Assembly (NCBI GenBank): GCA_031362565.1
Contig: JANLSU010000073.1
Coordinates: 86,555-150,554, forward strand
Source of the DNA: a bacterium
GTDB taxonomy: Bacteria > Krumholzibacteriota > Krumholzibacteriia > G020349025
DNA length: 64,000 nt
Direction: 5' to 3'
Below are positions 1 to 41,359 of this stretch, piece after piece. The translations under genes and the position numbers were made by a program. Numbering within the stretch: the first letter of the stretch is position 1; every line of letters starts with the position of its first letter. The notes under the pieces were generated by a model, which did no database searches, was not told the DNA's origin, and saw only the letters and a list, made by a program, of their open reading frames with translations.

Positions 1-1
1 C

Positions 2-241
2 TGGCTCAAGGATTCGCTCGCCTCGGGTCTTTCGCACCTCGAAGACATCGCCGTGCAGGCGGTGGAATCGGTGCCGGGCGAGGAAGCGCCGTCGCTGCTC
101 CGCTACCTGCGCGACAACCTGCATTTTGTGCTCGGCGATCGCGACGTGCAGGGGATCGAGACATTCCAAAAGCTTTGCCAGCGCTACAATCTGATTCCGG
201 CGAGCACGACGCCGCGGATTCTGGCGGCGGCTCACCCCTGA
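2..241 (+). CDS. mqnA: 3' end of menaquinone biosynthesis protein, MqnA-like chorismate dehydratase (partial, begins before the window)
   Basis: Frame is open from the window edge: WLKDSLASGLSHLEDIA...LLRYLRDNLHFVLGDRDVQGIETFQKLC, resembling the MqnA C-terminal pattern 'Y L..N i.y.LG..e..Gl..F'. Confidence 0.6.
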   Translation, partial: WLKDSLASGLSHLEDIAVQAVESVPGEEAPSLLRYLRDNLHFVLGDRDVQGIETFQKLCQRYNLIPASTTPRILAAAHP

Positions 242-313
242 CCGTAAAGACTCGCGGGCCGGCGTTGTCTCCAGGCCGGCGCCTTCGGGTCGGAGCGTGC
301 GTGCCTGGCGCTC

Positions 314-1684: not shown

Positions 1685-2880
1685 GCGGGCTCCGAGGCGC
1701 GCCCCGTGAGCCGGTCGACGAGGGCGATTTCGGCCGCGACGCGCGCCTCCCATCCCATGAAGTGCGCCCGTGCGAACTCGCGCGCCTGCCGGCCGAGGCG
1801 TAGGCGGAGATCGCGATCACTGGCGACACGCACCATGCATTCGACGAGCGCCGCGGCGTTTTCCTCCGGCGCCAGCAGGCCGGTTTCGCCGTCGCGCACC
1901 ACTTCCGATGTGCCGCCGACGTCGAGGGCCACGACCGGGGTTCCGACGACCATCGCTTCGCAGGTTGGAATCGACATGTTGGTGAGCGTCGAGGTCGAGA
2001 CGAACACATCCGCGCCGGCCATCACGAACGGCACACGATCGTGGGTGACGGTGCCCAGAAATCGCGCCCGGATGCCCAACGCCTGGCAGCGCCGTTCGAG
2101 CCCCGGGCGCGACGGGCCGTCGCCCGCGATCCACAGTTCGACCGGCGCCGTGCTGCGGCGCATGGTTTCCGGCATCGCTTCGACGATGCGGTCGACGCGT
2201 TTCGATTCGACAAGCCGCGACAGCGAGAGAAAAACGACGGTGTCGCGCCCGGTGCCGAACTCGGCACGGGTCGCCTCGCGCCCGAAGTCGCGCTCGGCCC
2301 ATTCCATGTCGATGCCGTTGGGCAAGTACGTGATGCGGCCGGCCGGCACGCCCCAGCGCCGCGCTGCCGCCGCGCCGCGCGTGCCGTCATTCAAGATCAG
2401 AAAATGATCGAGCGGCACCTTGAAAGCGAGGATCCCTTCGGCGGCGTGATACAGGTAGCGCGGCAGCGGCCAATCGAGGCGTACCGCCTGCATGACTCCG
2501 AACAACTTGAGAACCGACGGCACCCGAGCGGCGCGTCCGGCGCGCCACGCCGGCCAGGCGCCATAGTGTGAGAAACCCATGACGAGCGCCGGCCGCAATT
2601 CGCGTCCGAGCCGCACGGCATGGCGTCCCGCGACGGCCCAAAACGCCGGCAACAGCCACAAGCGCTTGAGGGGCGCCGGAAGGAAACCCGGCACGGCCAA
2701 CACATTGGGGAAGGTGTGCACAGTGAGACCGGGTTCCGACACGATGCGATCACCGGTCCGCGGCACCAGCAGATGCAGGTCCCACCCGGCGCGGCGCAAT
2801 CCCGCGAACATGTGGCTCTCGTCCGAGACCCCGGCGCCTGGTGCCATCGACCAGAGGCTTGGCCATGGGCTCACGATCAA
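1681..2880 (-). CDS. Glycosyltransferase family 4 (GT-B); the true start may be ATC at 2904
   Basis: Motifs LPNGID, LSRLVESKRVD, IAGDGP, ADVFVSTS and EAMVVGTPVVALDVGG. Confidence 0.88.
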   Translation of the reverse strand: MIVSPWPSLWSMAPGAGVSDESHMFAGLRRAGWDLHLLVPRTGDRIVSEPGLTVHTFPNVLAVPGFLPAPLKRLWLLPAFWAVAGRHAVRLGRELRPALVMGFSHYGAWPAWRAGRAARVPSVLKLFGVMQAVRLDWPLPRYLYHAAEGILAFKVPLDHFLILNDGTRGAAAARRWGVPAGRITYLPNGIDMEWAERDFGREATRAEFGTGRDTVVFLSLSRLVESKRVDRIVEAMPETMRRSTAPVELWIAGDGPSRPGLERRCQALGIRARFLGTVTHDRVPFVMAGADVFVSTSTLTNMSIPTCEAMVVGTPVVALDVGGTSEVVRDGETGLLAPEENAAALVECMVRVASDRDLRLRLGRQAREFARAHFMGWEARVAAEIALVDRLTGRASEPA

Positions 2881-3047
2881 GATGGAACTTCGCGGCGCGA
2901 CGATGGTTCCTCCTCGTGCAGCGTGCGCGCCGGGCGCGCCTTCCCGTGGGTTGCGGGCTGACCGAAGACGACACTATACTGGCCGGGCTCTCGAACCGCT
3001 GGCCCGGGCTTCTCCAGACTAGAGGAACGCGCCTCGTGACCCATTCG

Positions 3048-4973
3048 ATGCGTGCCCGCCCTCTTGCGATCGCCCTCGTTGTGGCCTGCGCCGGCTTGGG
3101 CTCTGCAGGGGCCTTGCCCCAACGCACCCTCGTTGCCCGGCCGTTGCCGCCCAGCGTGCTGGCTGCAGCCGAGTCCAACGGCGGTCCGCGGCTCACGGCC
3201 GAGTCCGCCCGCGCGCTCGCCGATTCACTCCTGGGTGGCGTGAGCGGCGTGCGCGGATTGAAGAGTCTGCGCCCGGTCCCGGTCGAGGCGCTCGACCGTT
3301 CCCACATGCGGGCGCGCCTGGAAGAGATTGCCCGCCAGGACGGCATCGAGCCGGCGTTGCGTCAGGAAGAAACGCTGCTGCGCTGGCTCGGGCTCATGCC
3401 CGCGGATGCGGATCTCGTGCACCTCTACCATGACTTGCTCGAAGAGCAAGTCGCGGGGTTCTACGACATCGACCGGCGCGAACTCGTGCTCGCCGACTGG
3501 GTTCCCCGCCAGTTGCAAGCCGTCGTGCTCGAGCATGAACTCGTGCACGCGCTGCAGGACCAACATTTCAGTTTGCGGGTGCGCAAGCGCTTGGGGTTCG
3601 ACAATCCCGACGCCGAGGCGGCTTGGCATGCCCTCATCGAGGGTGACGCGACCGCGGTCATGGCCGAGATGGAACTCGCGCCGACCGGCGCACATTTCCC
3701 GGCGCTCTTGGACAGCGGCACGACGGTGACTCTCGCTTCACCGGCGGCGCGCGCGGCAGCCGGCGGTTACGACTCGGAGCGCTTTCGCGCCGCTCCGGCC
3801 TCGGTGCGCCAAAGTTTGGCCTTTCCGTACGTCAGCGGCATGCGTTACGTGGCGGCCCTTTTTCGGACCGGCGGCTGGCCGGCCGTCGATGCGGCCTTCG
3901 TGCATCCGCCGGTTTCGACCGAGCAGATCCTGCATCCCGATCGCGTCGACAACGCCAAGGATTTGCCGGTACGCATCGCGTTGCCCGACCTGACCGGCAT
4001 GCTGGGTGAAGGCTATCGATTGCTCGGCACTGGTTTTCTGGGTGAGCAGGATCTGCGTGTTTACTTGGCCCAGTACGTGGATCATGACCTTGCCTCGGTG
4101 GCGTGCGATGGATGGGCCGGCTGCGCTTGGGCATTGTATGGCGGTGATGCGTCGATCAAACCAGTCTTCGTGCTGTCGTCGACCTGGGATTCCGACGACG
4201 ACGCGGTCGAGTTCTTTGGCGGAGTCATTGGCACGCTGGAAGCGCGCTACCCGCAGCAAACCGGCTACACGGACGCCTCGACGCAAGATCAAATCCTCTG
4301 GAACGAGGACAAGGACGGCAAGTTCTTGAACGTCCTGCGGGTGCGCGAAAAACAAGTCCTGTGCGTCGAAATGCTGCCGAGCACCAAATTGCAGCGGGTA
4401 CTGGGCAAACTCGACACGGCGTCGCAGTTCGACGACCCGGCGCCCGAGGTGCGGGCGCGCGAGAAGGGGAACCTGCCCTGGAACCGTCTCGTTCGCGCTG
4501 TCGGCGCCAGCGCGATGACCCTGCAAATGGATTTGCCGGACGGCTGGACGCTGCTGCCGGCGGCGCCGGACTCGTCGATCATTCTCGCCGCAACGCGCGG
4601 CACCGCGCGCTTGCAATTGCAGATCGACCGCCATGCATCACGCGAAATCGGTCTCGACGGCCACGCCCATGCGGTCGCGAGCGCGCTGCAGAAACACGGC
4701 CGGGGAATCTACGTGCAGACGGACGTCACCTACCCGCGCAAGGACGCGCGGATGTATCAACACGTCTTCACGCAATACGAAGGCGAGGAACAATTCGCCT
4801 ACTACATCGCGGTCCTCGATCTCACCGAGGGCATGGGGACTTTGACGATTCGCGGCTCGGCGGAGAAGGATCCGGGCCTCGAACCCCTCTTCTACTCGCT
4901 GCTCGAAACGGTGCGCGTGGTACCGGCCGTGGCTTCGGACACGGTGCTGCCCATTCCGCCGCACGGCAACTGA
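3048..4973 (+). CDS. Exported HExxH putative zinc metallopeptidase with extra C-terminal domains
   Basis: Signal-peptide-like MRARPLAIALVVACAGLGSAGA; VAGFYD, LEHELVHALQDQHF, ALIEGDAT, FPY..G and PPVSTEQILHP. An alternative GTG start lies at 3036. Confidence 0.7.
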   Translation: MRARPLAIALVVACAGLGSAGALPQRTLVARPLPPSVLAAAESNGGPRLTAESARALADSLLGGVSGVRGLKSLRPVPVEALDRSHMRARLEEIARQDGIEPALRQEETLLRWLGLMPADADLVHLYHDLLEEQVAGFYDIDRRELVLADWVPRQLQAVVLEHELVHALQDQHFSLRVRKRLGFDNPDAEAAWHALIEGDATAVMAEMELAPTGAHFPALLDSGTTVTLASPAARAAAGGYDSERFRAAPASVRQSLAFPYVSGMRYVAALFRTGGWPAVDAAFVHPPVSTEQILHPDRVDNAKDLPVRIALPDLTGMLGEGYRLLGTGFLGEQDLRVYLAQYVDHDLASVACDGWAGCAWALYGGDASIKPVFVLSSTWDSDDDAVEFFGGVIGTLEARYPQQTGYTDASTQDQILWNEDKDGKFLNVLRVREKQVLCVEMLPSTKLQRVLGKLDTASQFDDPAPEVRAREKGNLPWNRLVRAVGASAMTLQMDLPDGWTLLPAAPDSSIILAATRGTARLQLQIDRHASREIGLDGHAHAVASALQKHGRGIYVQTDVTYPRKDARMYQHVFTQYEGEEQFAYYIAVLDLTEGMGTLTIRGSAEKDPGLEPLFYSLLETVRVVPAVASDTVLPIPPHGN

Positions 4974-6904
4974 GCCCCTGGCGCCGCGGTGGCTTCGTAG
5001 CCCGGCCAGGCGCGCAACCGTTTCAGGTTCGGTTCCGTCTTCTGCTGCAGTTTGTTCATCCGGTGCAGGATGCGATCCAGCAGCCGCATCGCGTCGATCA
5101 CATGCGGACCTTTGTTGAGCATGACGCATTCGGCGCGCACCGCGGAAGCCGCGTCGGTGATTTCGGCCCGCGACGGCAAGCCGGTCTTTGTGAGCGACTC
5201 GAGAACCTGGGTGGCCCACACCACCGGAACGTGAGCCGCGGCGCAGATCCACAGGATCTGTTCCTGGATTTCGGCCAGTGATTCCCAACCACACTGCACC
5301 GCCAGGTCGCCGCGCGCGATCATGACACCGACCGCACGATCCTGCATGGCCGCCAGGAGCAAGTCGGGCAGGCGCTCGAAGGCCAGGCGGGTTTCGATCT
5401 TGAGCAGGATACCGACGTGCTCGGCGTGCAAGGCTCCTAGGCGCGATTGCAACTCCAGAACGTCGGCCGGGCTCTGCACCCATGACAACCCGGCGATGTC
5501 GGCATGCCCGGCGACGAACGCCAAGTGCTCGACGTCCTGGGGGGTGAGTGCCGGCAGTTGCAGGTCGCTGTCGGGGAGATTGATGCCGCGATCCGCATGA
5601 ATTTTGCTTCCGTCCGGATGGGCGTGATGAATGTCGATTTCGACGTCACCGTCGGCGACCTGGCGCACGGTGCCACCGATCTTGCCGTCATCGATCCAAA
5701 CCGGCTGGCCGGCGCGGACGCGTTCGAGGGCTGCCGGGAGGGTGCACGACACGATCGCCGGCGCAATGACGCGCCCGCTCGCATCGACCTGTGCCGGTGC
5801 TGCAACGACGGGCTGCGATGTCAAGACGAGCCGGTCGCCCGGGCGCACGACGATGGCGCCCGGGCGCCGTTGAATCCCGTAAGCGTGCGCCCACTCACCG
5901 CCGCCGGAACGCCGGCGCCGCGAACTCGTGCGCTGGAATCGCGTTTCCGGTGTGACGTACGCCGTCCGCGAACAGGAGCCCCAGCAACTGCGTCCATGAG
6001 ATTCCGTGATGTCGATCGACCGCCGGTCGCCGCGCGCATCCTCGAATTCCACGCTGTCACCCGGCCGTAAGGATTCGAGCCAATAGGCCGGCAATCGCAG
6101 TGTCGCGTCGGGTTGACGCGGTGCGGGTTCGGGGTGCGGCCAGGGTGTCAGCCACAAACGTGCCGGCGAGAGCACCCGGCCCAGTTCATCGCGCCGCGGC
6201 TTCCAACGCAGGACGGGCGCCGTTTCGCTCACCGGACCGGTGCGTATTTTGGGACCGGCAAGATCCATGAGGATTCGGCAGGCGCGTTGCGTGTCGCGCT
6301 GCGCGCTGCGTAGGTTGGCAATCATGCCTGTCCACGCCGCCGGGCCGTCGTGCGCACAATTGATGCGCATGCAGTCCATGCCGCTGGCGAGCAATGCCTG
6401 AACGAAGCCGGCATCCTCCGCCGCCTGTGACGGCATGGTCACCATGATGCGGCCCTTGCGTCCGCGCGGCGCCGGCCCCAGGAGAGCCTCGGTGCGCGCC
6501 GCCAACAGCGCCGGTCCAGCTCCGAACGGCACGACGCGCGACGCGGTAGGAAAGGGCGGCGGACTGCGGTCCGCGAGGCAGCACAAGACGCGGAGCACTG
6601 CCTGCAGGTTGCCCATCACGTGGGACTCTGCACGGCCGAGCGACGAAACGCCGAGTGACTGCAGGCTCGCCTGCAGCGGGCGAATATCGCCGCTGCGAAG
6701 TGCAAGGTAGTGGATAAGATTGCGCGCGCTCGGCACGTGCGCCGTGGAAACCCGCGCCAGCGAGGGCGCGTGCTCGTCCTCGACTCGCACCAAGCGTTCG
6801 GACAATGCGGCAAGCTCCTCGATGAGAACATCGAGGCTGCGGGGCGGGAACGGGCCGGGCGACACATGGTCGTCCTGCATGCCGGGCGCGGAAATCATGT
6901 CCAT
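4892..6904 (-). CDS. pyk: Pyruvate kinase, long variant (N-terminal extension, enlarged B domain, no C-terminal allosteric domain); start uncertain (6904/6898/6880)
   Basis: Motifs RINCAH, DLAGPKIRTG, IDDGKI, GINLPD, KIET, MIARGDL, ATQVLES, PSRAEITD and ECVMLNKG. Confidence 0.9.
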   Translation of the reverse strand: MDMISAPGMQDDHVSPGPFPPRSLDVLIEELAALSERLVRVEDEHAPSLARVSTAHVPSARNLIHYLALRSGDIRPLQASLQSLGVSSLGRAESHVMGNLQAVLRVLCCLADRSPPPFPTASRVVPFGAGPALLAARTEALLGPAPRGRKGRIMVTMPSQAAEDAGFVQALLASGMDCMRINCAHDGPAAWTGMIANLRSAQRDTQRACRILMDLAGPKIRTGPVSETAPVLRWKPRRDELGRVLSPARLWLTPWPHPEPAPRQPDATLRLPAYWLESLRPGDSVEFEDARGDRRSIDITESHGRSCWGSCSRTAYVTPETRFQRTSSRRRRSGGGEWAHAYGIQRRPGAIVVRPGDRLVLTSQPVVAAPAQVDASGRVIAPAIVSCTLPAALERVRAGQPVWIDDGKIGGTVRQVADGDVEIDIHHAHPDGSKIHADRGINLPDSDLQLPALTPQDVEHLAFVAGHADIAGLSWVQSPADVLELQSRLGALHAEHVGILLKIETRLAFERLPDLLLAAMQDRAVGVMIARGDLAVQCGWESLAEIQEQILWICAAAHVPVVWATQVLESLTKTGLPSRAEITDAASAVRAECVMLNKGPHVIDAMRLLDRILHRMNKLQQKTEPNLKRLRAWPGYEATAAPGAQLPCGGMGSTVSEATAGTTRTVSSSE

Positions 6905-30541: not shown

Positions 30542-30811
30542 GGAGCGTCTCCGGGGAAAGGGACCGACAGATCAATATGGTATGCGTTGGGTCGGTGGCT
30601 CGCAAGTCGGGTCATTTCGCGCACACGGAATGGGATTTGGGTGCAGGCGACCGAATTCGGCCCTAGGCTGGCGCATTCTTTACGAAACAGCCACGGAGAT
30701 CCTTGATCCCGGCACCAAGTTGGACGCATACTGGGCGAGCTTCCCCAGCGTGCCATAGTTCAGGGCCTCGTCGTTCGCCCCCGCGCGATGCCCAATCCGT
30801 TGGAGTCCCCG

Positions 30812-31564
30812 ATGCGCTCGCGAACCTTGTTTCGCGACGTCCGCCTCAGCCGGCCGGACGCCGTAGTTTTCTCGATCTCTCTACTCACATCTCTTGCGGT
30901 GCTTGCCGGTACCGCAGGTGCGACGATTCTTGATTTTTCTGCTGCACTCCAAAACATACCGGCGGGTGCGCCGGTCGGAACGGTGACGTTGCCGAACGGC
31001 GCGACGATGCACGTGACCGCAGACAACACGGGCGACGGGCCTGATCTCGCCATCGTCTTCGACTCGGCGCATCCGACCGGTGACAACCGTGATCTCGGAA
31101 CTCCCAACGAGGATTTCGGCGGACCCGGGATCGGCGCCGGTGGGCACCGCGGCAAGCCGGGCGAGAATGCCATCCCGCTTGGCAATGTTCTCATCATTGC
31201 CGACAACGACGCGGATGAAAATGGCGACGGGCTCGTCGACGATCCGGAGAATTCGCATGCCGGAGTCCTGACGCTGAAGTTCTCGCACGCCGGACGTGTC
31301 GCTCTCACATTCATCGATTTCGGCGATGACGATCCGGGACCGCGCTTGGTGCTGTTCGATGACGGCAACGAGGTGGGCGAGGCCCGCGGCCACAACATGG
31401 GCAACAACGGCGCGCAACACCTGGACCTGGCATCGTATGGCGACATCGACCAGGTGGAAATTCATATGCGCGGCAGCCACTGCATCGGCGCCATCACGGT
31501 CGACGTGCCCGTCGTCGGCGTCGACACCGGCACGTGGTCGAAGGTGAAGTCGCTGTTCCGGTAG
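30812..31564 (+). CDS. Exported Gly/Asp-rich protein with a C-terminal TWSKVKSLFR tail
   Basis: Hydrophobic signal ending in TAGA; Ca-binding-like DNDADENGDGLVDDP; GGAG SD before ATG 30812. Confidence 0.75.
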   Translation: MRSRTLFRDVRLSRPDAVVFSISLLTSLAVLAGTAGATILDFSAALQNIPAGAPVGTVTLPNGATMHVTADNTGDGPDLAIVFDSAHPTGDNRDLGTPNEDFGGPGIGAGGHRGKPGENAIPLGNVLIIADNDADENGDGLVDDPENSHAGVLTLKFSHAGRVALTFIDFGDDDPGPRLVLFDDGNEVGEARGHNMGNNGAQHLDLASYGDIDQVEIHMRGSHCIGAITVDVPVVGVDTGTWSKVKSLFR

Positions 31565-33225: not shown

Positions 33226-34509
33226 GTGGAACGCCCGATCAACCGCGTCGTCGTGCTCGGTGCGAACGGCACGATGGGGGCCCAATCGGCCGCGCTGTTT
33301 GCACGTGCCGGTGCCGAGGTCGTGTGCGTCAGCCGGACGGTGGAGAAATCCGCTGCCGCGATCACCCGCCTCTTGGCCAAGGAACCTGAACTCGCGCCGC
33401 GCTTGCAGGCGATCGCGTACGACGGCCTGCCGGCCGCGCTCGTGGGCTGCGACTGGGTGTTCGAGGCCCTGGGCGAGGACGCAACGCTCAAAAGCACCAT
33501 TTTTGCGATCATCGACCGGCACCGGGCACCCGATTGCGTCGTCAGCACCGTGACGAGCGGCCTTTCCATCACCGCCCTCGCCGCGAGCTGCAGCCCGTCC
33601 TTTCAGCAACATTTTATCGGCACGCACTTCTTCAACCCACCGGCGAAGCTCCTTGCCTGCGAGCGGATCGCGCATCCCGCGGCGCGGCCGGAGTTCGTCG
33701 AGTTCATCGACACCTACTTGCGCGAGCGCTTGCAACGCGTCGTCATTCCGGCGCGCGATGTGCCGGGGTTCGCGGGCAATCGCATCGGCTTCCAGTTCCT
33801 GAATCAGGCGGCCCAGGCGGCCGAGACGCACGGTGTGTTGGCGGTGGACACCTTGCTCGGCGGCTACACGGGGCGGGCGTTGCCGCCGCTCGCGACCATC
33901 GATCTCGTCGGTCTCGACGTGCACCGGGCGATCGTCGACAACGTCTTCGCCAATGCCGCGCACGATTGCCGGGAATGCTTCCAGGTGCCGGAGTTCGTCG
34001 CCGCGATGATCGGCCGCGGGCAGCTCGGCAAGAAGGCGCCGCAAGCCGGCGGATTCTATGGCCCGCGCACCAACGGCGCTCGGCCGGTGTGGAACGTGCA
34101 GCTCGCGGTGCACGAAACCCCCGAAGCACCGCGCTATGATTTCGTAGACGCCGCAATCGCGGCGCTGCAGACGGGCGATGCGGCGGCCGCGATCCGCGGC
34201 GTGTTCGCGGCGACTGAAGGGCCGGCGCGCTTCGTTCAAAAAATACTGGCAAACTACCTGCACTACTCGTTCTCGCGAGTCGGCGATGTTACGGACACTG
34301 CGGACGGCATTCATGGCATCGACGCCGTGATGGCGCACGGGTTCTGCTGGGCGCCACCTGGCGCGTTCGTGGATCTGCTCGGTGGGCCGGCGGCGACGGC
34401 GCGCGTGCTCGTGGCGAACGGGTTCCGGGTGCCGGTGGCGCTTGCGGAGCTGCCGGAGGGTGCCAGCGTTTGTCGGATTGCCAACCCCGCGAAGTTCTTC
34501 CTCGTCTGA
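33226..34509 (+). CDS. 3-hydroxyacyl-CoA dehydrogenase family protein
   Basis: Rossmann VLGANGTMG; FEALGE, GTHFFNPP, PGFAGNRIG and DLVGLD; GGAGG SD before GTG 33226. Confidence 0.82.
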   Translation: MERPINRVVVLGANGTMGAQSAALFARAGAEVVCVSRTVEKSAAAITRLLAKEPELAPRLQAIAYDGLPAALVGCDWVFEALGEDATLKSTIFAIIDRHRAPDCVVSTVTSGLSITALAASCSPSFQQHFIGTHFFNPPAKLLACERIAHPAARPEFVEFIDTYLRERLQRVVIPARDVPGFAGNRIGFQFLNQAAQAAETHGVLAVDTLLGGYTGRALPPLATIDLVGLDVHRAIVDNVFANAAHDCRECFQVPEFVAAMIGRGQLGKKAPQAGGFYGPRTNGARPVWNVQLAVHETPEAPRYDFVDAAIAALQTGDAAAAIRGVFAATEGPARFVQKILANYLHYSFSRVGDVTDTADGIHGIDAVMAHGFCWAPPGAFVDLLGGPAATARVLVANGFRVPVALAELPEGASVCRIANPAKFFLV

Positions 34510-34515
34510 CCGGAG

Positions 34516-34578
34516 GTCCAGGCGCTTCGCGCCTGGACGACTGCCCCTTGGACACCTAGCCTCCACGCGCGGTAGAAT
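34516..34578 (+). promoter_or_regulatory. Hairpin plus sigma70-like promoter upstream of the aro-cmoA operon
   Basis: Perfect stem GTCCAGGCGC/GCGCCTGGAC (34516-34538), then TGGACA-N18-TAGAAT (34549-34578). Confidence 0.5.
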
Positions 34579-34660
34579 CCCTGCCGAACGCGGCGCACGG
34601 CGCCCCGATCCGAGCCCGGATTCTTCACTGATTCACCCACCGTGCATTGGAGAACGTCGC

Positions 34661-35728
34661 ATGTCCGACGTCACCATCACTGCCTTGCGCCAGAGGATCG
34701 ACGCGCTCAACACCCAGCTTCTGGGGCTTCTCCAGGAGCGCGCCGCGGTTGTGCTCGACATCGCCAACCTCAAACAGTCGCACGGCATCGACGGCTACGA
34801 CCCGAAACGCGAAGAAGAAATGCTGCACCGGCTCGTGGCCGAGGCCAACGGGCCTTTCGGGCCCGCCGAGGTCAGCGAAATCTTCAAGACCATCTTCCGG
34901 GTTTCACTCGATATTCAGGATCGCGACCGGCAGCAGAAGCTGCGGGTGCGGCGCCGCGACTTGGTACCCGAGGGTGGGCTGCGGGTCGGCAAAGCGGTGT
35001 TCGGCGGCGGCAAACCGGTGCTGATCGCCGGACCTTGTTCGGTGGAGTCGGCCGAGCAAATGGAGCGCATCGCGGCGGGACTGGCGAAGATTCCGGCGGT
35101 CAAGCTCTTGCGCGGCGGCGCCTTCAAGCCGCGCACCAATCCCTATTCGTTCCAGGGCCTGCGCGAAGAAGGGCTCAAGCTGTTGCAGGATGCCGGCCGC
35201 CGGCATGGCCTGACGACCGTCACCGAAGTCTTGGACACTTCGACGCTCGATTTGGTGAGCGAGTACACGGACATGTTGCAGGTCGGTTCGCGCAACATGT
35301 ACAACACCGAACTTTTGAAGGCGATTGGCAAGACTCGCAAGCCGGTGCTGCTCAAGCGTGGCTTCATGGCGACGCTCGAAGAATTCATGCTGGCGGCGGA
35401 GTACATCCTGGCCGAAGGCAACGACAAGGTCGTGTTGTGCGAACGCGGCATTCGCACCTTCGAGCGCTGGACGCGCAACACCCTCGACATTTCCGCCGTG
35501 CCGCTCCTCAAGCAGGAGACATCCTTGCCGGTGATCGTCGACCTGAGCCACGCGCTCGGGCGGAGCGACATCTTGACGCCGTGTGCGCGTGCGGCTCTCG
35601 CCGCCGGCGCCGACGGGCTCATGATCGAAGTGCACGACCGGCCGGATCAAGCTTTGTCCGACGGATTCCAGCAGGTCGATCTCGCGGTATTCGAGAAGTT
35701 CGTGCGCGACGTGGGGGTCCAAGCGTGA
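34661..35728 (+). CDS. Bifunctional chorismate mutase (AroQ) / DAHP synthase (type I-beta)
   Basis: N-terminal LRQRID...ERA...K...DPKREEEM...SLDIQ; IAGPCSVE, RGGAFKPRT, LLKRG, LCERGIR, DLSH and IEVH. Confidence 0.93.
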   Translation: MSDVTITALRQRIDALNTQLLGLLQERAAVVLDIANLKQSHGIDGYDPKREEEMLHRLVAEANGPFGPAEVSEIFKTIFRVSLDIQDRDRQQKLRVRRRDLVPEGGLRVGKAVFGGGKPVLIAGPCSVESAEQMERIAAGLAKIPAVKLLRGGAFKPRTNPYSFQGLREEGLKLLQDAGRRHGLTTVTEVLDTSTLDLVSEYTDMLQVGSRNMYNTELLKAIGKTRKPVLLKRGFMATLEEFMLAAEYILAEGNDKVVLCERGIRTFERWTRNTLDISAVPLLKQETSLPVIVDLSHALGRSDILTPCARAALAAGADGLMIEVHDRPDQALSDGFQQVDLAVFEKFVRDVGVQA

Positions 35729-36516
35729 AACCGGTCGACCCGCAGCCCGCCGCGGACTCTTTAGTGCGGCCTCGTGGCGCCAGCGTCCCTAAAGATCAGG
35801 TCTTCGCCCAGCCGCGCGCCAAGATCGAAGACTTCAACTTCGGCCACGACACGGCAGTCGTCTTCGACGACATGCTGGAACGCTCGGTACCGTTCTACGG
35901 TGAAATTCAGCGCATGGTGGCCGAGTTGGCCGCCGATTTCGCCGCCGACGGGACTGCAGTCGTCGATCTCGGCTGTTCGACCTGCACGAGCTTCCTGCAA
36001 ATCGGCGCGGCACTGCCGCCGGATGTCGGGGTGCGCTTCGTGGGCATCGACAGCTCGGAGGAAATGCTCGATCAAGCCCGCGAGAAACTGACCGCGGCGC
36101 GCTTCGCACGTCCCTACGAATTGCGCTGCCAGAACATGGACCAGGGCGTCGACGTGAGTGGCGCTTCGGTGGTGCTCCTGGTGTTGACCCTGCAGTTCGT
36201 GCGGCCGTTGCATCGCGAGCGCATCATGCGCAGCATCTACGACGGCATGGAACCCAACGGCTGCTTGATCCTGGTGGAAAAGGTGTTGGGTGAGAGCTCC
36301 ACCTTCAACCGGCTCTTCATCAAGCACTACTACGACATGAAGCGCAAGAACGGTTACAGCGATCTCGAAATTGCCCAAAAGCGCGAAGCGCTCGAGAACG
36401 TCCTCGTTCCGTACCAACTGGAAGAGAATAAACTGCTTCTCCAGCAGTGCGGATTCCGCAGCGTCGATGTGTTCTTCAAGTGGTACAACTTTTGCGGCAT
36501 GTTGGCGATGAAGTGA
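35725..36516 (+). CDS. cmoA: Carboxy-S-adenosyl-L-methionine synthase CmoA
   Basis: Motifs FDDMLERSVPFY, DLGCS, TLQF, LVEK, GYSDLEIAQKREALENVL (Arg equivalent to the carboxylate-binding Arg of CmoA) and WYNF; GTGA overlap. Confidence 0.88.
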   Translation: MKPVDPQPAADSLVRPRGASVPKDQVFAQPRAKIEDFNFGHDTAVVFDDMLERSVPFYGEIQRMVAELAADFAADGTAVVDLGCSTCTSFLQIGAALPPDVGVRFVGIDSSEEMLDQAREKLTAARFARPYELRCQNMDQGVDVSGASVVLLVLTLQFVRPLHRERIMRSIYDGMEPNGCLILVEKVLGESSTFNRLFIKHYYDMKRKNGYSDLEIAQKREALENVLVPYQLEENKLLLQQCGFRSVDVFFKWYNFCGMLAMK

Positions 36517-37277
36517 ACACGCCGGCCGCTATCCCGGCGCCAGCACCGGCGCGCACCCCGCTCGTGGCTCTGGGTAAGGTCTTTTTCCGGAGCCGCGACG
36601 TGACGCTGCCGGCTGTCCTGGTGCTGCTCACAGCCCTCGGTACCGCCCGCGATCCACTCGCTGGACCGGCCGCGGACCGGGTGATGACCGTGCTGGGCAT
36701 CGCGCTCGCCCTCGCCGGCCAAGCCTTGCGCGCCGTCGTCATCGGCCTCGTCTACATCCAACGCGGCGGCAAGAACCGCCGGATTCATGCCGATACGCTC
36801 GTCACGGACGGCTTCTTCGCCCACTGCCGGAACCCGCTCTACGTCGGCAACATCGCGATCCAGGTTGGACTGTTGTGCGTGCTGCACTCGTTCTGGGGCT
36901 ACGTCATTGGAGTGCCCTTCGTGCTGCTCGTGTACGTAGCGATCGTTGCCGCCGAAGAAGAGTTCCTGCGCCGCCAATTCGGTGCCGCATATCACGCCTA
37001 CTGCCGCCGGGTGCGCCGCTTCGTGCCGCGTTTGACCGGCCTGGGTGAAACGCTGCGCAGTACGTCGTTCGAGTGGCGCCGTCTGGTCCGCAAGGAGTAC
37101 GGCGCGACCGCCGCCTGGATGTCGATGTGCGGCGCCATTCTCTTGTGGAAGACCTACCGCCAGGGTGGGTTCGCGGCGCGGCCTGACTTCGTGCGTGGCG
37201 TCGTGATCGCCTGGGGCCTCGTTCTGGTGGGCTACGGCGTGGCGCGCGCCCTCAAGAAGGCCGGCCGGCTCGGCTGA
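36513..37277 (+). CDS. ICMT/PEMT-family integral membrane methyltransferase (LmtA-like)
   Basis: LVTDGFFAHCRNPLYVGN, EEEFLRRQFGAAYHAYCRRVRRFVP and FEWRRLVRKEY; several TM helices; GTGA overlap with cmoA. Confidence 0.85.
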   Translation: MNTPAAIPAPAPARTPLVALGKVFFRSRDVTLPAVLVLLTALGTARDPLAGPAADRVMTVLGIALALAGQALRAVVIGLVYIQRGGKNRRIHADTLVTDGFFAHCRNPLYVGNIAIQVGLLCVLHSFWGYVIGVPFVLLVYVAIVAAEEEFLRRQFGAAYHAYCRRVRRFVPRLTGLGETLRSTSFEWRRLVRKEYGATAAWMSMCGAILLWKTYRQGGFAARPDFVRGVVIAWGLVLVGYGVARALKKAGRLG

Positions 37278-37313
37278 TCGGGAAGTCTGCTGCCGGCGCA
37301 TTCGCGCCGGCGA

Positions 37314-39719
37314 CTAGCGGCCGGCCGCCTTCAGGATCGCCGCCACAATGTCGTCGTAGTTCGAGCCGAAACGGTGCCCGCTCGCGATTGCGTGCTTCTC
37401 GACGAGCGTCGAATCGAGTTGCGGGCCGATCGTGTCCGCGTCTTCCGTGCCATAGAAGGCCAGCATGCGGGTGCCGCGCAGTTGCTCGAGCTCGGGCAAT
37501 GTCGGGCGCGCCGTCGGACGCTTGGCGTCACGAATCAGATCCATCATATGGAATTCGAAGTCGGCACGCGCCGCGATGCCGAGGAGCGCGACCACATCGG
37601 TGCGCTGCCGGAGATCGCGTGGCAGGCGATTGAGCAGGAACGGCAGGACGTCGGCGCCGTGCGAGTATCCCACATAGACGACGCGCTCCTTGTGCCAGGC
37701 AGCGAGATAGTGCCGCAGGAGGCGTTCGAGGTCGTGCGCCGCGCCCTCCGGTGTCCGCGGCGTCCAGAAATAGTGCTGTGAATTCACCACCACGACGGCG
37801 ATGCCGTGCGCCGAGAGTTCATTGGCGATGCCTTTGTCGGTGACGCCGTAGCCGCCGTCGCCAGTCCACAGAACCGCAAGCTGGTCGGTCGCGGCCGCGA
37901 GCGGTTCGACTTCGGCGAGCGGCAAGTCGGCAAGCGAGTCGACCGCCGCCGCCGGCGGCTCGCTGTGATCGGCGCTCGCCGCGACGCGCGCGAAGGCGTC
38001 CTTGAACTGCGGCAGCCAATTCTTCGGCACGGAATAACCATGGCCGACCTTCGGCAGCATTATGAGTTCCGCACCGCGCACCCTGTTCACGTAGGCCTGC
38101 GTCGCAGCGGGGTCGCACACTTGATCGACGGTGCCTTGGAGCGCGACCCACGGCACTTCGAGTCCGCGTGCCGGCCGGAAGAGCACACCTTTCCCCTTGG
38201 GACCAGGGTCGAATTCGAGGCCGCTGCCCTTGCAGAACGGCTTCGTGAGCGGCAAATCAGGGCAGAAGCCCAGACTGACGGCGCCCTTGAACGTGGTCGC
38301 CGGCGCCTGCACCACGATCGCATAGACGAGCGTCGCACCCGACGAATACCCGACGAGGACGGGCTTGGAGTAGCGCGGGTAGTCGAACTTCTTCTGGATG
38401 AACTGGCTCAACGCCTCGAAGTCGGCCGCCGGGTACGAGCACTTCTCCGGCGCCGCTTCGAGTTTCTCGAGGTAGTGCGTGATGTCGATGCCGACGACCA
38501 GCGCGTCGAGGGCGGCAAGATCGTGCGCCATGTCGACGACGCCTTCGTTCCAACCGCCGTCGCCCGACACGAAGAGCACGACGTTCTTCGGCTGTGGCGA
38601 TTCGAAGTACAGATGCACGGTCCCGAAGCGTCCGAAGGTAGCGACGTCCTCGGTCGCATGAGCCGCTGGTGCCGCGGCCATGAGCATGCAAGCCGCGATC
38701 GCGATGGCGCCGGCGCCCGGCGCCGCACGCCGCACGACGCGCGCGTACAGGAACAGGCTCAGCACGAACGGCACGAGGTAGTACACGGCGCGGAAGACGA
38801 TCGCAGCAAGCACGGCCTGTTCGAAGTCGACCCCCAGCAACACATAGACGCCGGTCATCGAACCCTCCTGAATTCCCATGCCGCCAGGCAGCATGGAGAC
38901 GACTCCTAGGGTCACGCCGATAGCGAACCCGGTGATGAGTACACCGACGTGCAATGGCGCACCGAGGGCGCGAAAGCAGAAACCGAGCGCCACGACACAG
39001 GTCACCCAGTCGGCGAGCACGAATGCGAGCGGCACTCCAAGCAAGCGGGGCCGGCTGCGAATCGTCATGATGCCGCGCCCGAGGGTGGTGTCGAGGTTGT
39101 GCAGCGCGGGAGCGAAATCCCGGCGCAGGAACCGCTGCCCTGCACGCGCCAGCAGGCGGGCCACGGCTTGCCGGGCCCGCGCCGTGACGAGCAGTGCCGT
39201 CGTGGCAACGAGCAGCAATACGACGAGCGCCGTCGCCGCGCATAGTGCTGCCGTGCGGCTTTGCCCCAGCGGATGATTCATGAGCAAGTACACGAGTCCG
39301 GCGGGCAAGAGCGACATCATGACCAGATGGTTGAAGTATGAGTGGACGAGCGACGCCGCCAGAATGTCCTCGAGCCGATAGCCGCGCCGCCGCAATAAGA
39401 TCGTCCGCAGCGAATACCCGGCGGCCCCACCCACCGCCACCAAGTTGTTGAGCGCGAAAGATACGAAACCGATTTCCAGCTGGTCGCGGCTGTCGAGCCG
39501 AATCCCGAAGATGCGGTTGATTGCCGTGAAGCCCTTGGTGAGGCAGGCATACGAGACGGCCGTGAAGAGCAACGCCGGCACCAGCGCCCGCCAATCGGCG
39601 CGCGATACGACGCGGAGCGCCTTCTCGCCGTCCATCGCCACCGCGAGAGCGCCGACGAAAGCCAACCCGATGATCAGACTGGCGACGAGGGCGCGGTGTC
39701 CAACGGCCGGTTTCGCCAT
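37314..39719 (-). CDS. Fusion of a lysylphosphatidylglycerol-synthase-TM (flippase-like) domain with a two-domain AcvB/VirJ lysyl-PG hydrolase
   Basis: N-half has about 8 TMs with SMLPGGMGIQEG and FRAVYYLVP; C-half has FVSGDGGW, GYSSGA, WTGDGGY and GYSHGAD. Confidence 0.82.
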   Translation of the reverse strand: MAKPAVGHRALVASLIIGLAFVGALAVAMDGEKALRVVSRADWRALVPALLFTAVSYACLTKGFTAINRIFGIRLDSRDQLEIGFVSFALNNLVAVGGAAGYSLRTILLRRRGYRLEDILAASLVHSYFNHLVMMSLLPAGLVYLLMNHPLGQSRTAALCAATALVVLLLVATTALLVTARARQAVARLLARAGQRFLRRDFAPALHNLDTTLGRGIMTIRSRPRLLGVPLAFVLADWVTCVVALGFCFRALGAPLHVGVLITGFAIGVTLGVVSMLPGGMGIQEGSMTGVYVLLGVDFEQAVLAAIVFRAVYYLVPFVLSLFLYARVVRRAAPGAGAIAIAACMLMAAAPAAHATEDVATFGRFGTVHLYFESPQPKNVVLFVSGDGGWNEGVVDMAHDLAALDALVVGIDITHYLEKLEAAPEKCSYPAADFEALSQFIQKKFDYPRYSKPVLVGYSSGATLVYAIVVQAPATTFKGAVSLGFCPDLPLTKPFCKGSGLEFDPGPKGKGVLFRPARGLEVPWVALQGTVDQVCDPAATQAYVNRVRGAELIMLPKVGHGYSVPKNWLPQFKDAFARVAASADHSEPPAAAVDSLADLPLAEVEPLAAATDQLAVLWTGDGGYGVTDKGIANELSAHGIAVVVVNSQHYFWTPRTPEGAAHDLERLLRHYLAAWHKERVVYVGYSHGADVLPFLLNRLPRDLRQRTDVVALLGIAARADFEFHMMDLIRDAKRPTARPTLPELEQLRGTRMLAFYGTEDADTIGPQLDSTLVEKHAIASGHRFGSNYDDIVAAILKAAGR

Positions 39720-39724
39720 GCGCT

Positions 39725-41359
39725 TCAATCCTCGGTCATGCGGGTCAGTGCGACGCCGGCGTTGACGAGCCCCGCAGGTCCGCCCTGATAGGCCAGGAAA
39801 CGGTCCTCCCAGGCGGGTTCGAACTTGGCCTTGTAGTTCCGCAGTCCCTTGTACGAGAAGAACCGGTTCAGCCGTTCGTACAACTGGTGCACGGCGCGTT
39901 CCTCGAGCGGCGCGCCCGGGCGGTCGCCAACGCCGGCGAGCGGCGCGAGCCCGAGGCTGAATCGGCGCGCGCCGCCGGCGCCGAGCCGTGTCAGCGTCTC
40001 CATGAAGAGCAGGTCCATCGTGCCGTTCGGAATCTCCACCCGGTGTCGCATGAGATCCACGGTGGCATCGCCGTGGGGCCAGCAAGGAATGATGTTGACG
40101 AACGCCAGCGCCCGCCCTTGCGCGTTGCGACAGACGTAGAGCGGCGTCGTACCGATGTAGTCGCGCGTGAACGTGCCGAGCGTGAAGCCGCGCTCGCGGC
40201 GGCCCGGCACCGTGAGCCACTCGTTCGAAATCGCCTGCACGGCGTCGATCACCGCGGTCTCGTGCGGCGGCTCATGATACGTCACGATGAGTTCGAGCGT
40301 CTTGGCGCGGTTGGCGATACGGCGAAAGGTGTTCGAGCGGCACGTCGTCGCGGCGAAAGTCGGCAAGTCGACGAGTGCTTCTTCACCGATCTTGAGCACT
40401 CCCAAACCCAATTTCTGGTACAGCGGCAAGAGCGTCGGCAGCGTTTGGTGAAACGCTACGCGCCAGCCATTGTCGGCCGAGAAACGCAGGAAGGACTGGA
40501 CGGTGGGCTCGATCTCGCCGGCGGGGCCGACCGGGTCCCCGAGCGCGATCGCAAAACCCCACGCGGCGCGATAGGCGATGACGCCCGAATCACCGGGGCC
40601 GAAGAAGAAGGACTTGTCAGGCCAGGTCTTGAAGTAGTCGAGCGACGACCGGCCATGCGCCTCGATGATGTGCCGGGCCCGTTCGCGCTCGTTGGGCAGC
40701 GTGCGCAGCCGGAAGGCCAAGGGGCGATAGAGCGAAAACACCGCGAAGCCGAGCGAAGCGACGCCCATCACCTGCAACGAATCGAGAAACCAGCGCGCAT
40801 GGCGCGTGTGCGCCACGAGGTCGGCGTTGCCCGAGAGCCCGTACCCGAGCAGCGAGCGGCGGATGGCGTCGCGCCACGCGAACTCGAGGCCGAAGTCACG
40901 CCGGTCGAGCAGCCAGAATCCGGCGGCGCCATAGGCGATGGCGGCGATCAGGCTCGCGGCCACCAGCAGGATGCCTTGCGCGATGCTACGTGGTTCACTA
41001 CGCACCGTAAAACGCCGCCGGAGCGCCAGGAGCAACACCAACGTCGCAGCGGGTGCGATCGCCAGCGTCGGGTGATGGCCACGGCCGAGGTGCGCGCCCG
41101 CTGCCACGGCGAGTGTGGCGCAGGCCAGCCACCAGGCGGCCCGCCGGCGCCGATACAAATGGTAAGACAGGTCCGCAAGCAAGAAGCCGCTGGCCAGCGT
41201 GACGTGCTTGCTCCAGTGATGTGTGCCGAACGGCAGCACGAATGAGAAGAGCGCCGGGGCGTCGTGGGCGCGGACGAAGAGCGTATGCAGGATCCCGAGC
41301 GCACCGCTAGCAAGAGTCAACAGCGCAACAAGAACGATGGCGGGATCGCGACGCTGCAT
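39725..41359 (-). CDS. Aminoacyl-phosphatidylglycerol synthase (MprF C-terminal DUF2156 domain with a short TM region)
   Basis: Motifs DKSFFF, ALGDPVG, LKIGEEA, ERGFTLG, VDLMR, GLAPL and GLRNYKAKFEPAWE. Confidence 0.88.
   Translation of the reverse strand: MQRRDPAIVLVALLTLASGALGILHTLFVRAHDAPALFSFVLPFGTHHWSKHVTLASGFLLADLSYHLYRRRRAAWWLACATLAVAAGAHLGRGHHPTLAIAPAATLVLLLALRRRFTVRSEPRSIAQGILLVAASLIAAIAYGAAGFWLLDRRDFGLEFAWRDAIRRSLLGYGLSGNADLVAHTRHARWFLDSLQVMGVASLGFAVFSLYRPLAFRLRTLPNERERARHIIEAHGRSSLDYFKTWPDKSFFFGPGDSGVIAYRAAWGFAIALGDPVGPAGEIEPTVQSFLRFSADNGWRVAFHQTLPTLLPLYQKLGLGVLKIGEEALVDLPTFAATTCRSNTFRRIANRAKTLELIVTYHEPPHETAVIDAVQAISNEWLTVPGRRERGFTLGTFTRDYIGTTPLYVCRNAQGRALAFVNIIPCWPHGDATVDLMRHRVEIPNGTMDLLFMETLTRLGAGGARRFSLGLAPLAGVGDRPGAPLEERAVHQLYERLNRFFSYKGLRNYKAKFEPAWEDRFLAYQGGPAGLVNAGVALTRMTED

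Follow-up and report, generated by a model that had tools for sequence, protein, structure and literature searches.

Gene order and flanking signals

Positions 34661-37277 of the window, by which we mean the whole 64,000-nucleotide stretch of DNA that was analysed, hold a three-gene operon on the + strand. Its genes encode a chorismate mutase (CM)-DAHP synthase fusion (gene 1, 34661-35728, +, 355 aa), CmoA (gene 2, cmoA, 35725-36516, +, 263 aa) and a membrane protein of the ICMT/PEMT fold (gene 3, 36513-37277, +, 254 aa). The gene 1/2 and gene 2/3 junctions both read GTGA, so that a 4-base overlap joins each start codon to the TGA before it, and the gene calls bear out the description of three genes joined by two GTGA overlaps that was given in the initial annotation. 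The GTG starts of genes 2 and 3 are inferred ones, the frame of gene 3 being open from position 36447.

The gene upstream of the operon encodes a 3-hydroxyacyl-CoA dehydrogenase. Located 3′ of its stop codon is a hairpin with a perfect 10-bp stem (34516-34538, +; folding of 34505-34560, z -2.3), whose predicted fold makes it a likely terminator-like boundary; it has no T run, and a terminator scan made no call at this site. This hairpin is followed by a candidate sigma-70-like promoter, TGGACA-18-TAGAAT (34549-34578, +), which is a consensus match only, with agreement at 10/12 positions. One promoter-like site was found, compared with a mean of 0.4 in shuffled sequence. The 5′ leader (34579-34660, +) has a stable predicted structure (-39.7 kcal/mol and z -2.4 for the fold of 34560-34665) and matched no Rfam family at E≤1. 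At the other end of the operon, a GC-rich hairpin with a 9-bp stem (37291-37313, no strand assigned) lies where two convergent genes end, between their stop codons (37277 and 37314), and it too is without a T run (fold of 37275-37325, z -1.7). Flanking hairpins and a sigma70-like promoter had been claimed previously, and predicted folds and a consensus match are found at those sites, making them candidate signals at the operon edges.

Predicted carboxy-SAM synthesis and prephenate supply

The sequence of gene 2 predicts a carboxy-SAM synthase. It scores 235.2 bits against the CmoA model TIGR00740 (profile positions 1-239), above the curated equivalog cut-off of 193.3, and an end-to-end alignment with the solved CmoA structures 1im8 and 4gek shows the K-R-x-x-L-E-N-V motif in all three. 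The Arg of this segment, which we take to have a catalytic role, was said to be retained when the locus was first described, and both the common segment and the score agree with that view. Moreover, K219, R220, E221, A222, L223, E224 and N225 are invariant in 14/14 CmoA proteins of the module. The formation of carboxy-SAM from SAM and prephenate is indirectly supported because chorismate mutase genes and fusions are linked to this system, as described below.

The genome has no cmoA other than gene 2. A search for cmoB in the whole, 100%-complete genome gave a best TIGR00452 match of 36.7 bits, compared with a cut-off of 275, and cmoB was found in 0/208 genomes of the phylum, host included (E≤1e-30). 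The check for cmoB absence that had been called for therefore gave the same answer for the genome and for the phylum. The proposal that the membrane enzyme acts instead of CmoB stands for this genome and for 208/208 of the phylum, but it does not extend to Crenothrix, which keeps cmoB. Many class I methyltransferases in the genome give weak CmoB-like matches of 20-37 bits. Public annotation names members of the membrane-enzyme family isoprenylcysteine methyltransferases and their cmoA a tRNA-modification gene; the latter label is probably wrong in genomes that lack cmoB.

Gene 1 scores 478.8 bits against the bifunctional DAHP synthase/chorismate mutase model NF009239, above the cut-off of 279. 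It carries in one chain an AroQ chorismate mutase domain (CM_2, a Pfam-type domain match; residues 9-86, about 34685-34918, +) and a type I-beta DAHP synthase domain (DAHP_synth_1, a domain match; residues 112-347, about 34994-35701, +), and is in this respect a member of the chorismate mutase-linked type I-beta DAH7P synthases (Geobacillus, Listeria, Prevotella and Porphyromonas types). Two solved structures of CM-DAH7PS enzymes, 3nvt (E 1e-108) and 5j6f, can be aligned with it from end to end. Elsewhere in the genome, contig C70 carries another DAHP synthase, which is unfused, and contig C50 another CM_2 domain, and within the genome's family the fused DAHP synthase occurs only in cmoA-bearing genomes. 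Gene 1 is thus an extra DAHP synthase copy dedicated to the module, tied to cmoA and distinct from the housekeeping enzyme.

The link to prephenate takes three forms. An N-terminal CM-DAHP synthase lies upstream in this window, in genomes G001, G004, G005 and G006 and in 6 metagenome loci; a DAHP synthase with a C-terminal CM, the other type of CM-linked DAH7P synthase, lies downstream in genome G123; and the membrane enzyme is itself fused to an AroQ chorismate mutase in 5 of 12 representatives, the long members of the family that were tested. The last of these forms came from an exhaustive search of family representatives, and a word-index search for longer fused forms of the membrane enzyme returned none at E≤1e-20. 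The suggestion in the initial annotation that the operon boosts prephenate supply is strengthened by these CM fusions and by a second-copy DAHP synthase that travels with cmoA. Both the N-terminal and the C-terminal CM-linked types of DAH7P synthase are inhibited by prephenate (PMC8408635).

The membrane enzyme and its association with cmoA

Gene 3 exceeds the Pfam gathering cut-offs of both PEMT (PF04191, 41.3 bits, cut-off 25) and ICMT (PF04140, 26.1 bits, cut-off 24). In an AlphaFold2 model of its product (pLDDT 85.9), residues ~18-173 match ICMT 5vg9 with Z 11.7 and rmsd 3.1 over 138 residues, and the model matches 4a2n with Z 10.2 over 144 residues; Foldseek E-values are weak, 0.018 at best. 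The cofactor-binding half is thus modelled as an ICMT-type helical fold. Residues R106, P108, Y110, E148 and E149 of the cofactor motifs R-x-P-x-Y (R-N-P-L-Y in gene 3) and E-E are invariant in alignments A1 and A2. Gene 3 also keeps the family Arg that aligns with Arg173 of beetle ICMT, a residue that presumably binds the substrate carboxylate. Although the core fold, the cofactor motifs and the Arg173 equivalent are common to gene 3 and the ICMT/Ste14 proteins (5vg9, 5v7p, 4a2n), identity is about 20%, the loop before the cofactor motif is different, there is no prenylcysteine context, and a C-terminal helical hairpin (195-254) is additional in gene 3. The choice of Asn versus His in R-x-P-L-Y was considered as a subfamily signature and rejected, as His occurs in 5/80 loci, 3 of which adjoin cmoA.

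Just before the cofactor motif is a subfamily-specific basic loop (residues 82-94; 36756-36794, +), in which R84, G85 and G86 are invariant in 22/22 sequences of alignment A1 and for which the model has pLDDT <50. This loop might accommodate the extra carboxylate of carboxy-SAM. An R-G-G loop is present in 79/80 metagenome loci, a count that we dropped as evidence since the R-G-G motif is itself one of the two sequence patterns used to scan for these loci. Other members of the family are fused to a C-terminal CM, a C-terminal PAS or an OmpA domain, the last with one extra hydrophobic segment first. Because the C-terminal CM and PAS domains need the cytoplasmic side, the C-terminus of gene 3 is expected to be cytoplasmic, and the cofactor site likewise.

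Among characterised families, the best-scoring match to gene 3 is LmtA of Leptospira interrogans, a lipid A 1-phosphate O-methyltransferase (TIGR04571), which is similar in length and has a mostly alignable helix layout. However, the score of 72.8 bits is below the cut-off of 325 and places gene 3 outside this family. Its nearest sister family consists of LmtA-like paralogs that score 166-273 bits on TIGR04571 and share about 26% identity with gene 3; they are present in 16/208 genomes of the phylum, and 0/16 have cmoA. Unlike these genes, which have T-S-G, gene 3 has the R-G-G basic loop and is linked to cmoA, with T-S replaced by R84-G85 and G86 conserved in both families. We did not accept the mutual exclusion of the LmtA-like genes (16 genomes) and the module (5 genomes) as a sign that they share a substrate, given that chance alone predicts only 0.4 overlaps.

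The membrane-enzyme family is not rare, with 407 clusters at 50% identity (E≤1e-30), and soil, sediment and rhizosphere bacteria have it. Within the phylum, cmoA is found in 6/208 genomes (one cut by a contig end) and the membrane gene in 5/208, the same genomes, and the two genes adjoin in 5/5 of these carriers; related genomes in these counts are not independent observations. Adjacency holds in 65 of the 80 metagenome loci, with cmoA upstream on the same strand in 64 and downstream in 1, while in 9/80 loci the 504 nt or more available upstream of the membrane gene contain no cmoA, which may lie elsewhere in those genomes. The pair is also adjacent in 5/5 examined plasmid records of 18 hits. 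Examined megaplasmid carriers are cultured Ensifer, Sinorhizobium, Rhizobium and Gemmatirosa, and in Rhizobium sp. T136 two IS6 transposase genes flank the cmoA/membrane pair and nothing else. In Crenothrix the pair is adjacent in 2/2 loci, with the order inverted. There, cmoB lies elsewhere, and the sole cmoA is the one adjoining the membrane gene, beside tadA (tRNA modification); because cmoB is present, this cmoA would also have the ordinary tRNA role. The adjacency of cmoA and an ICMT-type gene, which we had proposed to look for in other genomes, is thus conserved across many genomes, with the gene order varying and with a mobile cassette among the cases, and the comparative tests suggested at the outset all came out in favour of the proposal.

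A candidate membrane carboxymethyltransferase

Gene content, coupling, co-occurrence, fusions and fold are observed, and the best reading, in our view, is that gene 3 is probably a carboxy-SAM-dependent membrane carboxymethyltransferase; carboxy-SAM as the cofactor, the topology and the acceptor are what we infer. The operon would then be a self-contained carboxymethylation module. Its CM-DAHP synthase fusion would provide an extra entry valve to the shikimate pathway, feeding prephenate. By analogy with characterised fusions, gene 1 may be inhibited by prephenate, and therefore a prephenate drain would reopen the entry valve. CmoA would convert SAM and prephenate to carboxy-SAM, and the membrane enzyme would take carboxy-SAM, not SAM, and carboxymethylate (+58 Da) an acceptor embedded in the cytoplasmic membrane, at its inner leaflet.

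Alternatively, gene 3 might be an ordinary SAM methyltransferase whose link to cmoA is indirect, either LmtA-like or methyl-esterifying a carboxymethyl group as CmoM does on cmo5U. Such an enzyme would be expected to keep the general ICMT/PEMT cofactor motifs and the family Arg, as gene 3 does, and ICMT enzymes methylate carboxylates. Moreover, there are wild-type methyltransferases that can use both SAM and carboxy-SAM (PMC7496830). Nevertheless, this explanation strikes us as improbable. It offers no reason for a chorismate mutase fusion or for an IS6-flanked two-gene cassette with cmoA, and true LmtA-like paralogs are confined to genomes without cmoA. The methyl-ester variant also requires a third enzyme, a carboxymethyltransferase, and clustering of neighbours across the long loci revealed no recurrent gene of this kind.

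For a carboxymethyltransferase encoded by gene 3, an anionic lipid head group would most likely serve as acceptor. Within this reading we tentatively favour a lipid phosphate, be it the 1-phosphate of lipid A/Kdo2-lipid A or a different one, by analogy because the sister family is LmtA-like and because of a few gene neighbourhoods. For example, three loci have the pair inside an Arn-like operon (oxidoreductase, DegT aminotransferase, GT2, LAB_N and ArnT-like genes), and a PAP2 phosphatase is near the pair in Ensifer canadensis. The gene lpxC is present in the genome. It is possible, though doubtful, that a mobile two-gene cassette serves a previously unknown envelope chemistry in which a lipid phosphate, of lipid A or of a polyprenyl-phosphate-linked sugar, is carboxymethylated. 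Plasmids and flanking IS elements would carry this cassette from one phylum to another, and in some lineages it would include its own prephenate supply.

A carboxy-SAM-using membrane enzyme could instead act on a non-lipid acceptor such as a quinone, a pigment, a xenobiotic or a protein terminus, possibly in efflux or detoxification. At five loci the membrane gene indeed follows RND, MFP, TolC or MFS transporter genes, and no lipid-synthesis gene is universally linked to the pair. We judge this to be quite improbable, as by family model no characterised protein is closer than a lipid A methyltransferase, and as lipid phosphates or lipid-linked sugars are suggested by both the Arn-like operons and the PAP2 neighbour. 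The window's own MprF-like and VirJ-like neighbours (37314-41359) had been taken as a hint of a phospholipid substrate. This clue was abandoned as uninformative, since the module does not keep these genes as neighbours elsewhere: of four neighbouring genes of the window that were tested, none had a match near it in G001, G005, G006 or G123. Least probable of all is that CmoA feeds an unrecognised soluble carboxymethyltransferase (a CmoB replacement on tRNA, or one acting on a small molecule) and that the membrane gene is a conserved passenger, for although the single cmoA of Crenothrix must serve CmoB, beside tadA, and the genome has its many class I methyltransferases with weak resemblance to CmoB, a passenger would not stay at cmoA's side in lineages far apart and in three different gene orders, nor be fused to chorismate mutase, and in the phylum the membrane gene and cmoA have exactly the same patchy distribution.

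If gene 3 does encode a membrane-embedded user of carboxy-SAM, this would be an enzyme of a new class, and probably one that makes a new modification of lipid or lipid A, with a carboxylate added. Surface charge could change as a consequence, and hence cation binding or sensitivity to antimicrobial peptides. Should the mobile-cassette reading hold, carboxy-SAM would serve more generally as an alkyl donor when the envelope is remodelled, beyond its use in nucleic-acid and peptide modification. New here are the five CM fusions, the extra DAHP synthase copy bound to cmoA, and the LmtA-like sister family in cmoA-less genomes only. Direct testing is possible because the pair occurs in cultured bacteria, among them Ensifer adhaerens Casida A, Ensifer canadensis T173 and Gemmatirosa kalamazoonensis KBS708, and because some rhizobia are genetically tractable.

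Our literature search found no description of a cmoA-linked membrane carboxymethyltransferase system. In the literature searched, carboxy-SAM users are of four kinds, all soluble, acting on tRNA, peptide, a nucleotide antibiotic and phage DNA. The CmoA/CmoB pair of the E. coli tRNA cmo5U34 pathway has the same first enzyme as the operon studied here and follows the same logic, the gene for the synthase being coupled to that for the transferase that uses its product. However, CmoB is a soluble Rossmann-fold tRNA enzyme, whereas the partner here is a polytopic ICMT-fold membrane protein. Known users recognise the extra carboxylate of carboxy-SAM by Lys/Arg, such as Lys91/Arg315 of CmoB and a key Arg in CmoX, and an ordinary methyltransferase is moved towards carboxy-SAM when one Tyr is replaced by Arg (PMC10491745, PMC12783734, PMC7496830). 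A CmoA homologue is combined with a carboxymethyltransferase that replaces CmoB in TglE/TglF (3-thiaglutamate) and in MccS with MccB's C-terminal domain (microcin C-like), and phage CmoA/CmoX, which makes DNA 5-carboxymethylcytosine, follows the same pairing logic (PMC10491745, PMC12783734). The transferases of these systems have soluble folds of class I or C5-MTase type, and their substrates are peptide, nucleotide and DNA, none being a membrane enzyme and no lipid acceptor being described, unlike what we propose for gene 3. Nevertheless, these accounts agree with the present operon in one respect, in that TglE/TglF, MccS/MccB and CmoA/CmoX all pair a CmoA homologue with a dedicated transferase other than CmoB.

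The operon and the distribution of its genes

Three open frames on the forward strand were confirmed by translating the window: a chorismate mutase-DAHP synthase fusion (gene 1, 34661-35728, 355 residues), cmoA (gene 2, 35725-36516, 263 residues) and an ICMT/PEMT-type membrane protein (gene 3, 36513-37277, 254 residues), joined, as initially annotated, by two GTGA start/stop overlaps between genes 1-2 and 2-3. The sigma70-like promoter (34549-34578, a consensus match only) and the hairpins reported upstream (~34516-34538) and downstream (~37291-37313, both predicted folds only) were also recovered. The 5′ leader (34579-34660) has a stable predicted fold (z −2.4) and might conceivably act as a regulatory RNA; an Rfam search of it gave no family match.

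Each gene could be assigned to a family. Gene 1 scores 478.8 bits against NF009239 in a curated family search (cut-off 279), carries Pfam domains CM_2 (residues 9-86) and DAHP_synth_1 (112-347), and aligns along its entire length with 3nvt and 5j6f, solved structures of the Listeria and Geobacillus enzymes. Gene 2 is CmoA (TIGR00740, 235.2 bits, cut-off 193.3), aligning end to end with solved CmoA/YecO structures and retaining the K-R-x-x-L-E-N-V segment. Gene 3 matches Pfam PEMT (41.3 bits) and ICMT (26.1 bits), and its top curated match is the lipid A 1-phosphate methyltransferase LmtA, at 72.8 bits against a cut-off of 325.

The reverse strand carries an unusual split MprF-like system at 37314-41359, with an LPG_synthase_C-domain protein (39725-41359) and a second protein combining an LPG_synthase_TM flippase-like region with two VirJ/AcvB-like hydrolase domains (37314 to ~39800); related genomes do not conserve these genes beside the module. 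On the forward strand, 30788-31564 encodes a 258-aa predicted secreted protein ending in T-W-S-K-V-K-S-L-F-R.

The window's genome, which is 100% complete in 133 contigs, holds a single cmoA and no cmoB (top match 36.7 bits, cut-off 275), and no cmoB was found across the 208 phylum genomes searched, which bears out the absence originally noted from the window. Within this set, cmoA occurs in six genomes, five above the cut-off and a sixth interrupted by a contig end. Orthologues of the membrane gene occur in five, which are the same five genomes as the full cmoA carriers, and the two genes adjoin in every one.

This adjacency, on which the proposed pathway depends, recurs elsewhere. When metagenome contigs were scanned with the membrane-protein alignment, 80 loci were kept, and in 65 cmoA directly adjoins the membrane gene (64 upstream on the same strand, one downstream). 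The remaining 15 comprise six loci with less than 200 nt of upstream sequence and nine with at least 504 nt upstream and no cmoA. No cmoB match lies within any of the 80 loci. Plasmid records with a homologue of the membrane enzyme number 18, and in all five examined (Ensifer canadensis T173, Ensifer adhaerens Casida A, Sinorhizobium sp. B11, Rhizobium sp. T136 and Gemmatirosa kalamazoonensis KBS708) cmoA is immediately upstream. On the conjugative plasmid pT136b of Rhizobium sp. T136 (locus L141, 2033-5613), just these two genes lie between two IS6-family transposase genes, an indication that they function as a unit, with SAM, prephenate and acceptor coming from the host. The arrangement resembles a composite transposon. 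Of the window genes flanking the module, the two upstream and two downstream that were tested lack matches close to it in three relatives (G001, G005, G006) and in G123, a genome from another family of the phylum, again in keeping with an independent unit.

In two Crenothrix genomes the genes run tadA, membrane gene, cmoA, the inverse of the order in the window, within a conserved guaB-guaA-tadA-membrane gene-cmoA block (1000-6550 of loci L010 and L011). These genomes carry cmoB on another contig (495.5 and 480.7 bits), in contrast to the cmoA-cmoB operon usual in Gammaproteobacteria, and the only cmoA in each is the copy adjoining the membrane gene. The membrane enzyme is thus an additional partner of CmoA here, and replaces CmoB only in genomes that lack it. 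The suggestion that it acts instead of CmoB therefore fits the window's genome and phylum, but not Crenothrix.

Predicted prephenate supply

Gene 1 is an extra copy, since the window's genome encodes a further, unfused DAHP synthase on another contig; a second CM_2 domain also lies elsewhere. Within the family, the fused form occurs only in the five genomes with cmoA (G000, the window's own, and G001, G004, G005 and G006), directly upstream of cmoA in each. Two members without cmoA, G002 and G003, gave only an unfused match, at 71% and 86% completeness. In G123 the order is cmoA, membrane gene and a DAHP synthase with a C-terminal chorismate mutase, just 34% identical to gene 1, whose mutase is N-terminal; the association thus arose with two fusion architectures. 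A CM-DAHP synthase fusion also adjoins the pair in eight of the 80 metagenome loci.

A family-profile search of 1.84 billion representatives returned 407 proteins at E≤1e-30. Twelve of the listed proteins of at least 309 aa were scanned for domains, and in five of them the membrane enzyme is naturally fused to an AroQ chorismate mutase. Prephenate, the product of this mutase, is the co-substrate of CmoA (PMC12783734 and PMC10491745). A fusion to chorismate mutase would, as far as we can see, serve no purpose for a SAM-dependent methyltransferase. Prephenate is reported to inhibit both types of DAH7P synthase fusion (PMC8408635); if such inhibition holds here, gene 1 would be a valve that opens as CmoA consumes prephenate. 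Judged by gene content and order, the module in the window's lineage has a predicted prephenate supply of its own.

The membrane enzyme and its loop

An AlphaFold2 model computed from a 22-sequence alignment (mean pLDDT 85.9, pTM 0.84) superposes over residues ~18-173 on the ICMT structure 5vg9 (Z 11.7, rmsd 3.1, 138 residues) and on 4a2n (Z 10.2). Foldseek gave weak E-values, yet again ranked these two first. The model has an extra helical hairpin at residues 195-254. The C-terminal chorismate mutase fusions, together with a locus L075 protein (4001-5191) that ends in a PAS domain, require a cytoplasmic C-terminus, so that, as in ICMT, a cofactor site on the cytoplasmic side would be expected. 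In an OmpA-domain fusion, the periplasmic domain is preceded by one additional hydrophobic segment. Among three representatives with other architectures (P0262, P0134 and P0241), one has this extra transmembrane segment and OmpA domain and two have tandem ICMT-like halves. At locus L107 (2561-4720) the membrane enzyme shares a single frame with an MFS-transporter-like N-terminal part, either through fusion or because no stop codon separates two genes.

LmtA-like paralogues occur in 16 of the 208 phylum genomes, none of which has cmoA, and score 166-273 bits in full-length matches to the LmtA model; the cmoA-linked proteins reach just 72-85 bits. The two groups share ~26% identity and are alignable along most of their length; what sets them apart most clearly is the loop that precedes the cofactor motif. 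This is the basic loop singled out in the initial annotation. R84-G85-G86, after Y81, is invariant in all 22 cmoA-linked sequences and the loop is retained in all five chorismate mutase fusions, whereas the LmtA-like group has T-S at the positions of R84-G85. According to PMC10491745, PMC12783734 and PMC7496830, the extra carboxylate of carboxy-SAM is recognized by Lys91, Tyr200 and Arg315 in CmoB and by a key Arg in CmoX, and one Tyr-to-Arg change in a plant N-methyltransferase shifts carboxymethyl:methyl product from 1:1 to 4.5:1. By analogy, the gain of an invariant Arg in the loop, which is modeled at pLDDT <50, fits a cofactor switch.

Acceptor candidates and known users of carboxy-SAM

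Clustering of neighbours across long loci revealed no third gene that generally recurs beside the pair, and the acceptor is thus probably a common cell component. Four leads bear on its identity. The LmtA-like family is the sister of the membrane enzyme, and the 1-phosphate of Kdo2-lipid A is the group that LmtA methylates (PMC4402001). In three metagenome loci (L088, L091 and L105, ~1-6400), cmoA and the membrane gene share a co-directional operon with genes for a GFO/IDH/MocA oxidoreductase, a DegT aminotransferase, a GT2, a small LAB_N membrane protein and one or two ArnT-like transferases (PMT_2). In both E. canadensis (L137) and E. adhaerens (L139) a two-component system, with an OmpR-type response regulator and a histidine kinase, lies downstream of the pair, joined in the former by a PAP2 phosphatase. 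The window's genome has lpxC. A conserved Arg of the membrane enzyme also aligns with Arg173 of beetle ICMT, whose presumed role suggests, by analogy, an anionic group on the acceptor. On these grounds we tentatively favor O-carboxymethylation of a lipid phosphate, with a likelihood of about a third at most. At L061, too, a response regulator comes after the pair, and RND-pump genes adjoin the membrane gene at L079, L102 and L126.

As far as sequence comparison reaches, the initial reading of a carboxy-SAM module with a membrane carboxymethyltransferase is supported. The full texts searched, as far as available, describe CmoB, TglF, the MccB C-terminal domain, phage CmoX and engineered enzymes as users of carboxy-SAM, and among them we found no membrane or lipid user. 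The module would be a new variant of the known two-enzyme carboxy-SAM cascades, sharing their logic of synthase plus transferase, but with a transferase that differs from theirs in having another fold, a membrane location and an acceptor that is probably a lipid.
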